A DNA stretch of 13,684 nt from a virus. Its lineage: Duplodnaviria > Heunggongvirae > Uroviricota > Caudoviricetes. Positions 13,002 through 13,684 of this stretch are shown here, piece by piece. Each line of letters starts with the position of its first letter. Positions within the stretch are counted from its first letter, which is position 1. The stretch covers positions 1-13,684 of IMG/VR virus record IMGVR_UViG_2563366959_000001; one strand, 5' to 3'. A model generated the notes under the pieces. The model saw only the letters and a program-made list of their open reading frames with translations, did not search any database and was not told where the DNA came from. The position numbers and the translations under genes are program-made.

Positions 13002-13340
13002 ATGGTAACCGTAATCTGGAAAGAATCCAAAGGTACGGCAAAAAGCCGCTATAAAGCTCGCAGGGAAGAACTTATTGCAGAGCGGCGCAGTAGTGAAAGA
13101 CTGACACGGAAGATTGCGCTAAAGATCTCTGGTTGCGTCAGAGCAGACAAAGCAGTATCACTCAGCAGCCTTCGCAACAAGAAGGCAGAAGAAGTCGAGC
13201 GAAAAAACAGAAGTACTTATTACAAGGATTCAAACCCATTAGGAAACAAAATACATGCAGTTCAAAAAATAAAATTGTACAGTAAACCACCGTATGGACT
13301 TATTGAGTATGCTTATGGTGAAAAAGACTATTTATGTTAA
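13002..13340 (+). CDS. N: Antitermination protein N (phi21-type arginine-rich motif)
   Basis: ATG at 13002 with AGGAG 6 nt upstream; ARM GTAKSRYKARREELIAERR close to the phi21 N peptide as recalled; central ...ERKNRSTYYKDSNPLGNKIHAVQKIK parallels lambda N ...ERKNQRTWYSKPGERGITCSGRQKIK. Confidence 0.8.
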   Translation: MVTVIWKESKGTAKSRYKARREELIAERRSSERLTRKIALKISGCVRADKAVSLSSLRNKKAEEVERKNRSTYYKDSNPLGNKIHAVQKIKLYSKPPYGLIEYAYGEKDYLC

Positions 13341-13557
13341 TCCTAATCGCGGACAAAACAGAAAAGTATCTGACAGAAGCCTTACATCTCGAGACAGAAG
13401 GAGGATAGCGAGATGGGAAAAGAGAATAGCATATGCATTAGAAAACGGTATAACACCTGGATTTAATGCTATAGATGACGGTCCGGAATATAAGATTAAT
13501 GAAGACCCAATGAACAAAGTTGACAAAGCATTAGGGAAGGTGCGAACAAGTTCCTGA
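13309..13557 (+). pseudogene. ORF downstream of N whose 3' end is supplied by the IS5-family inverted repeat (likely truncated by the insertion)
   Basis: Reading frame runs from N-overlapping region into the IS element; last 7 codons (GKVRTSS) are IS-derived; no recognisable family, coding status uncertain. Confidence 0.25.
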
Positions 13558-13684
13558 TATGAGATCATCATATTCATCCGGAGCGCATCCCAGAGGGACA
13601 TCATGAGCCATCAACTCACCTTCGCCGATAGTGAATTCAGCACTAAGCGCCGTCAGACCCGAAAAGAGATTTTCCTCTCCCGCA
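13534..13684 (+). mobile_element. IS5-family insertion sequence, left end (terminal inverted repeat GGAAGGTGCGAACAAG at 13534-13549), continues beyond window
   Basis: Terminal repeat and leader match IS5 as recalled; flanking TTAG (13530-13533) fits the IS5 YTAR target preference. Confidence 0.85.
13602..13684 (+). CDS. IS5-family transposase (InsH-like), N-terminal 27 codons only
   Basis: Translation [27 protein letters not shown], nearly identical to the IS5 transposase N-terminus as recalled; runs off the window end. Confidence 0.85.

Follow-up and report, generated by a model that had tools for sequence, protein, structure and literature searches.

In phage HK022 the nun gene sits in the position of N, and put RNA is used in place of N. 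[quoted passage not shown] The arrangement of N followed by nun has already been annotated in the phages mEpX1, mEp235 and PA28. RNA polymerase modified by N resists Rho-dependent as well as intrinsic terminators, and Adhya, Gottesman and de Crombrugghe reportedly found in 1974 that it releases the polarity of IS insertions. ISKpn26 is an element of the IS5 group, 1196 bp long when complete, with 16-bp terminal inverted repeats and a 4-bp YTAR target duplication; the DDE transposases of this group comprise about 326 aa. For IS5 itself the target has been described as YTAR, which is duplicated on insertion (PMC5009759).

We analyzed a stretch of 13,684 nucleotides of caudoviricete phage DNA (IMG/VR record IMGVR_UViG_2563366959_000001), here called the window, which carries an N gene, a nun-like gene and one end of an IS5-family element at its right end. 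The N antitermination gene (13002–13340, + strand) is intact. The 112-aa product shows 100% identity to N as annotated in phage PA28 and matches phrog_271, ‘anti-termination protein N-like’, with an E-value of 9.7e-30; the match to Pfam N_peptide remained below the cut-off (20.1 vs 27.9 bits). We assign the protein to the phi21 type by its ARM, to which the comparison was limited: residues 8–29 share 21 of 22 positions with the phi21 N peptide in PDB 1NYB. Upstream of the gene a boxA-like element, GCTCTTTAACA, is found at 12852–12862, followed by a boxB hairpin at 12872–12891 (TCTCAAC-CTAACC-GTTGAGA), for which RNA fold prediction gives a 7-bp stem and a 6-nt loop. These elements form a putative nutL (12852–12891, + strand), which we infer to be of the phi21 type because the ARM of N is.

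Directly after N, downstream of cI and nutL, lies a promoter-proximal ORF of the pL operon that overlaps the 3’ end of N by 26 nt. In PA28 this ORF is uninterrupted (110 aa), and its product aligns from end to end with HK022 Nun (PDB 6ALG, chain N), with 101/109 identities and an E-value of 9.4e-68; 24 of 26 positions are identical to the Nun ARM peptide of 1HJI. It terminates in ...MHRVVNHAHQRNPNKKWS, and in both PA28 and the prophage of E. coli SCPM-O-B-9504 the allele ends in the same ...HRVVNHAHQRNPNKKWS as HK022 Nun. A Pfam search with Nun gave no match. By its sequence the ORF is a true orthologue of HK022 nun, a relationship that had not been recognised in the first-pass annotation of this DNA. 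The locus differs from HK022 in that a phi21-type N is located immediately upstream and overlaps nun.

The copy in the window is incomplete. Its coding sequence, taken from the ATG at 13315 with alternative upstream ATGs at 13309 and 13294, covers Met plus Nun residues 1–72 in HK022 numbering (13315–13534, + strand, the 5’ two-thirds of the gene) and continues into the IS for seven codons, GKVRTSS, before a TGA at 13555–13557 (IS-encoded tail, 13535–13557). The match to phrog_5632, ‘Nun-like transcription termination factor’, accordingly extends over profile positions 3–76 of 112 only. The ARM, DRSLTSRDRRRIARWEKRIAYALENG, is retained upstream of the insertion with 24/26 identities to the 1HJI peptide. 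Residues 73–109 are missing from the ORF and with them the arrest segment 87–109, which is present in the uninterrupted allele. We therefore read the window copy as a disrupted nun and not as a functional member of the family: it would keep the predicted boxB-RNA tether and lose the arrest effector. Absence of the C-terminal arrest segment of Nun is the sole certain consequence of the insertion.

Other public nun alleles also depart from the HK022 form. Several alleles from E. coli (P0016–P0021) are frameshifted or N-terminally replaced, which suggests either that prophages often carry a decayed nun or that this AT-rich gene is prone to sequencing errors. Four proteins from Proteus mirabilis and Providencia stuartii (P0003–P0006), annotated as ‘transcriptional regulator’ and only 37–46 aa long, contain little beyond the C-terminal arrest motif of Nun, DDIMNRVVNHAHQRNPNKKW, and have no arginine-rich RNA-binding motif; they may be the result of mis-called starts or may be genuine tether-less Nun-like peptides. 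A longer protein, P0022 (96 aa), has an ARM and represents a divergent full-length Nun.

The element that interrupts nun is ISKpn26. All 150 bp from 13535 to the end of the window (13535–13684, + strand), where the element is cut off, are 100% identical to the left end of ISKpn26 as found in more than 4000 plasmid records. In total 4196 plasmid records matched the IS part, 4058 of them with at least 99% identity, and the annotation given there is ‘IS5-like element ISKpn26 family transposase’. As reference we used a complete copy of 1196 bp on a Raoultella plasmid (L003:1501–2696), whose positions 1501–1650 correspond base for base to the IS part of the window. This copy is bounded by the repeats GGAAGGTGCGAACAAG on the left and CTTATTCGCACCTTCC on the right, and its transposase CDS starts 68 nt from the left end. 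Its flanks do not match, with TTAG on the left (1497–1500) and TTAA on the right (2697–2700). In the window the identical repeat GGAAGGTGCGAACAAG occupies 13535–13550; this left tip shows the IS5/ISKpn26 terminal repeat GGAAGGTGCGAA(C/T)AAG, and the right repeat would fall beyond the end of the window. The transposase gene begins with the ATG at 13603, so that 27 codons (13603–13684) fall within the window, identical to the annotated ISKpn26 gene. The transposase is encoded on the + strand, co-oriented with N and with transcription from pL. The window hence shares the left repeat and the first transposase codons with ISKpn26 and differs from the complete element in holding its left end only, up to IS position 150.

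To place the boundary we used a megablast of 12900–13684 against phages (PA28, Stx1a phages) and 5426 complete E. coli genomes. Many matches had 100% identity. Uninterrupted sequence was found in 210 of the E. coli genomes, and all matches to uninterrupted phages and prophages stop at window position 13534, query base 635. In PA28 and E. coli SCPM-O-B-9504 the empty site reads GCATTAG joined to CAACACC, compared with GCATTAG joined to GGAAGG in the window. Since homology ends at 13534 and the empty site is continuous there, the IS starts at 13535 and its target is the TTAG at 13531–13534, present in single copy in both uninterrupted relatives. The first-pass annotation had correctly identified an IS5-family end, although it placed the start of the repeat at 13534, one base too early. 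Its other observations on the junction agree with ours: the IS begins 194 bp past the N stop codon, which ends at 13340 (about 190 bp had been given), it lies inside an ORF (13294–13557) that overlaps the 3’ end of N and is interrupted, and TTAG suits the IS5 target preference, which PMC5009759 gives as YTAR.

We determined how often such a site would be met by chance. Within the window's phage part YTAR makes up 1.1% of positions. Among ISKpn26 left junctions on IMG/VR contigs, 98 of 112 distinct junctions (88%) are at YTAR and 29 of the 112 are at TTAG, one of the three commonest targets of the element. Because YTAR is rare in the window and dominant at ISKpn26 junctions, we regard the junction as a signature of transposition and not as a chance or assembly breakpoint.

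The first-pass annotation had proposed a comparison with uninterrupted homologous prophages, and a suitable one was found in E. coli SCPM-O-B-9504 (NZ_CP144930.1). This prophage is 99.9% identical to the window over positions 1–8192 and 99.7% identical over 8855–13534, covering 95% of the phage part at an overall identity of about 99.8%. In it nun is uninterrupted, and a 156-aa ORF (L004:28115–28585) comes next, ahead of a sieB-like gene, cIII, kil, gam, bet, exo, ea22, xis and int; the prophage adjoins mlrA. It so shows what should lie past the IS if the insertion is a simple one. The Stx phage PA28 (NC_041935; nun at L001:6416–6748) is 100% identical over N–nun up to the junction. Both differ from the window in having an intact nun and no ISKpn26 at the site. 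The genome of SCPM-O-B-9504 contains 24 places that match the 12900–13684 query, of which about 23 are additional matches to the IS part; this strain therefore seems to carry ISKpn26 in many copies. The prophage itself bears marks of decay, namely a frameshift in the portal gene (L004 1875–4621) and an IS1 in a gene of the ea22 region (32953–33921).

Upstream of N the window shows no disruptions. The ORFs of cI, cro, cII, O, P, ren, NinB, NinG, a phosphatase and Q are intact with clear PHROG matches, and the region also encodes an HNH endonuclease, a second HNH/NUMOD4 protein, a methyltransferase and two antirepressors. That the immunity, replication and nin/Q modules are intact, as had been stated earlier, is borne out by family matches for all of these ORFs and by the 99.7–99.9% identity to the related prophage. 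A 662-bp segment (8193–8854) that contains the HNH endonuclease gene (8193–8804, phrog_99) is present in the window and in PA28 and cleanly absent from the SCPM-O-B-9504 prophage; it looks like a mobile indel of the homing-endonuclease type beside ren. The gene for the second HNH/NUMOD4 endonuclease (6337–6939) is located in the nin region between ninB and the adenine methyltransferase gene. A strong intrinsic terminator on the + strand (12419–12436, CCCGGC-TCCAGT-GCCGGG followed by TTTTATTT) lies downstream of cI and upstream of pL/nutL, and transcription of nun from the cI promoter in a lysogen would have to cross it.

At the left end of the window, downstream of Q, a 252-aa TciB-like protein (phrog_1521) is encoded at 972–1730 on the − strand, and positions 1–311 (− strand) hold the beginning (103 codons) of a gene for a SASA-family (nanS-like) esterase, which runs off the left end, as in phages 434 and 2B8. 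Shiga toxin appeared among the features matched by megablast, but a stx gene at this end was ruled out, since the TciB-like and esterase genes are found there instead; PA28 in contrast carries stx2 downstream of Q. The left end (1–1730) is thus without stx, and no tRNA was found there either. Outside this end, the window has its greatest similarity to Stx1a and Stx2c phages.

Taken together, we consider it probable, with some reserve, that the ISKpn26 copy which cuts off the arrest segment was inserted by simple transposition into the TTAG of nun, that the pL arm lies beyond the element and that the prophage was not made defective by this event. ISKpn26, which is abundant in Enterobacteriaceae, would have transposed into nun in a lambda-like E. 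coli prophage with phi21-type N/nut and PA28-type immunity, a close relative of which is integrated beside mlrA. The insertion splits nun after codon 72, giving a product Nun(1–72)+GKVRTSS with the ARM and without residues 73–109. After 1.2 kb the remainder of nun and the pL arm (sieB-like, cIII, kil, gam, bet, exo ... xis, int) would resume, and the right junction expected from such an insertion would read CTTATTCGCACCTTCC-TTAG-CAACACCATTTCC, the latter being the rest of nun, with the right end of ISKpn26 joined to CAACACCATTTCCTCG. On induction N-modified RNA polymerase starting at pL would cross the IS, so that the leftward early genes would be delayed and not cut off.

The first-pass annotation had favored a different course, with the prophage defective or rearranged on this arm. 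In that case the IS end would mark where DNA was deleted or inverted, or where two ISKpn26 copies recombined; the distal portion of nun, together with part or all of the pL arm (cIII ... xis, int, attL), would no longer adjoin the site, and the prophage would be locked in or defective. This could happen with ISKpn26: losses of 10–32 kb beside the element have been described in Klebsiella prophages (PMC6908951), and the roughly 23 further IS matches in the closest related genome would offer many substrates for recombination. We also surveyed ISKpn26 copies in IMG/VR with both ends visible. Flanking 4-mers differed in 14 of these 40 copies on viral contigs, as they do around the Raoultella plasmid copy (TTAG/TTAA), and such non-matching flanks imply later recombination. 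In the other 26 of 40, however, the flanking 4-mers were identical, and 29 of 30 insertions of ISKpn26 in acrR were simple insertions with duplication (PMC8023600), so that a clean duplication accompanies most copies. The window itself shows no sign of arm loss.

The right junction was found in none of the collections searched. A predicted 41-nt right junction (IRR, TTAG and the 3’ part of nun) had 0 matches in the GTDB representative genomes, the JGI metagenomes and IMG/VR. While this might be taken to favor a rearrangement, the exact 44-nt left junction likewise had 0 matches in each of the three collections, and a 300-bp junction query found no place covering at least 80% of its length in the 5426 complete E. 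coli genomes. Failure to find the right junction is therefore uninformative, since the left junction is missing from the same collections as well. A rearrangement at the IS end appears unlikely, though it deserves more attention than the readings that follow, and we consider a simple insertion with duplication of TTAG as most likely.

A simple insertion could still act strongly on the operon if transcription from pL ended within the IS at Rho-dependent or intrinsic terminators, leaving cIII, gam/bet/exo and xis/int silent and preventing normal excision and growth. IS insertions are classically polar, and the truncated nun ORF stops 21 nt into the IS, leaving 45 untranslated nt up to the transposase ATG. 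Scanning ISKpn26 for terminators gave a single weak hairpin candidate on the co-oriented strand and nothing strong. Polymerase modified by N is resistant to both types of terminator, a property that was originally defined in part by the release of IS polarity, and both N and nutL are intact upstream of the element. A block of this kind is accordingly improbable. Because N and nutL are intact and N-modified polymerase overrides terminators, the effect on the distal pL genes is probably small; that the phi21-type N would allow read-through of ISKpn26 is expected in analogy to lambda N and to insertion sequences other than ISKpn26.

These considerations also bear on the view that the insertion truncates the pL operon and renders the prophage defective, for which we found no support: just 150 bp of the IS are visible before the window stops, both N and nutL are undamaged, and nun is dispensable in HK022, where nun mutants show normal lytic growth and lysogeny (PMC4496710). 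The ISKpn26 event alone would not be expected to make the prophage defective. Nun-mediated exclusion of phages with lambda-type nut sites, on the other hand, would be lost.

At 24 nt from its right tip ISKpn26 has an ATG whose reading frame matches that of nun codons 73–109. A simple insertion would therefore predict a 46-aa ORF (MTCLFAPSL + ATPFPRD...NPNKKWS) containing the complete arrest segment and no RNA tether, and one may ask whether Nun has been divided into an ARM-only Nun 1–72 and a separate, untethered arrest-segment ORF starting inside the IS. Were this so, Nun 1–72 could bind lambda boxB and compete with N without arresting transcription, and the untethered arrest peptide could hit RNA polymerase non-specifically or be toxic. 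By exact look-up the predicted chimeric ORF and seven edge-truncated versions were absent from a collection of 15 billion proteins, and a homology search did not recover it; this absence is uninformative, since the strain is evidently not in the collections and ORFs of this size are rarely called. We give a functional split of this kind very little credence.

Equally far-fetched is a mis-join of the assembly at a repeat or a mere short IS remnant. It could be proposed because the window ends within the IS, in the manner of draft contigs, with 150 bp of the element visible and no more. A mis-join, however, would not reproduce a break that coincides with both the tip of the IS and a YTAR site. 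Over its visible 150 bp the element shows 100% identity to full ISKpn26 copies that look active, and the identical junction exists on a separately assembled Logan contig recorded from 3 samples. This contig, SRR640146_77 (2.5 kb), was the sole match in an exact look-up of the truncated Nun, which is on record there with 82 aa, counted from the start at 13309; the contig is identical to positions 11049–13559 of the window and stops 25 nt into the IS.

In summary, every component of this locus is already known: ISKpn26, nun, the phi21-type N/nut and the order of N followed by nun. The insertion is a routine case of an accessory prophage gene being knocked out by an IS. For annotation this means that the interrupted ORF should be entered as a disrupted nun and the element as ISKpn26, and that the prophage should not be scored as defective on present evidence. 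The insertion probably removed one superinfection-exclusion function, that of Nun against phages with lambda-type nut sites, from the lysogen. It adds a further example of ISKpn26 eroding the accessory genes of prophages and raises no unresolved question.
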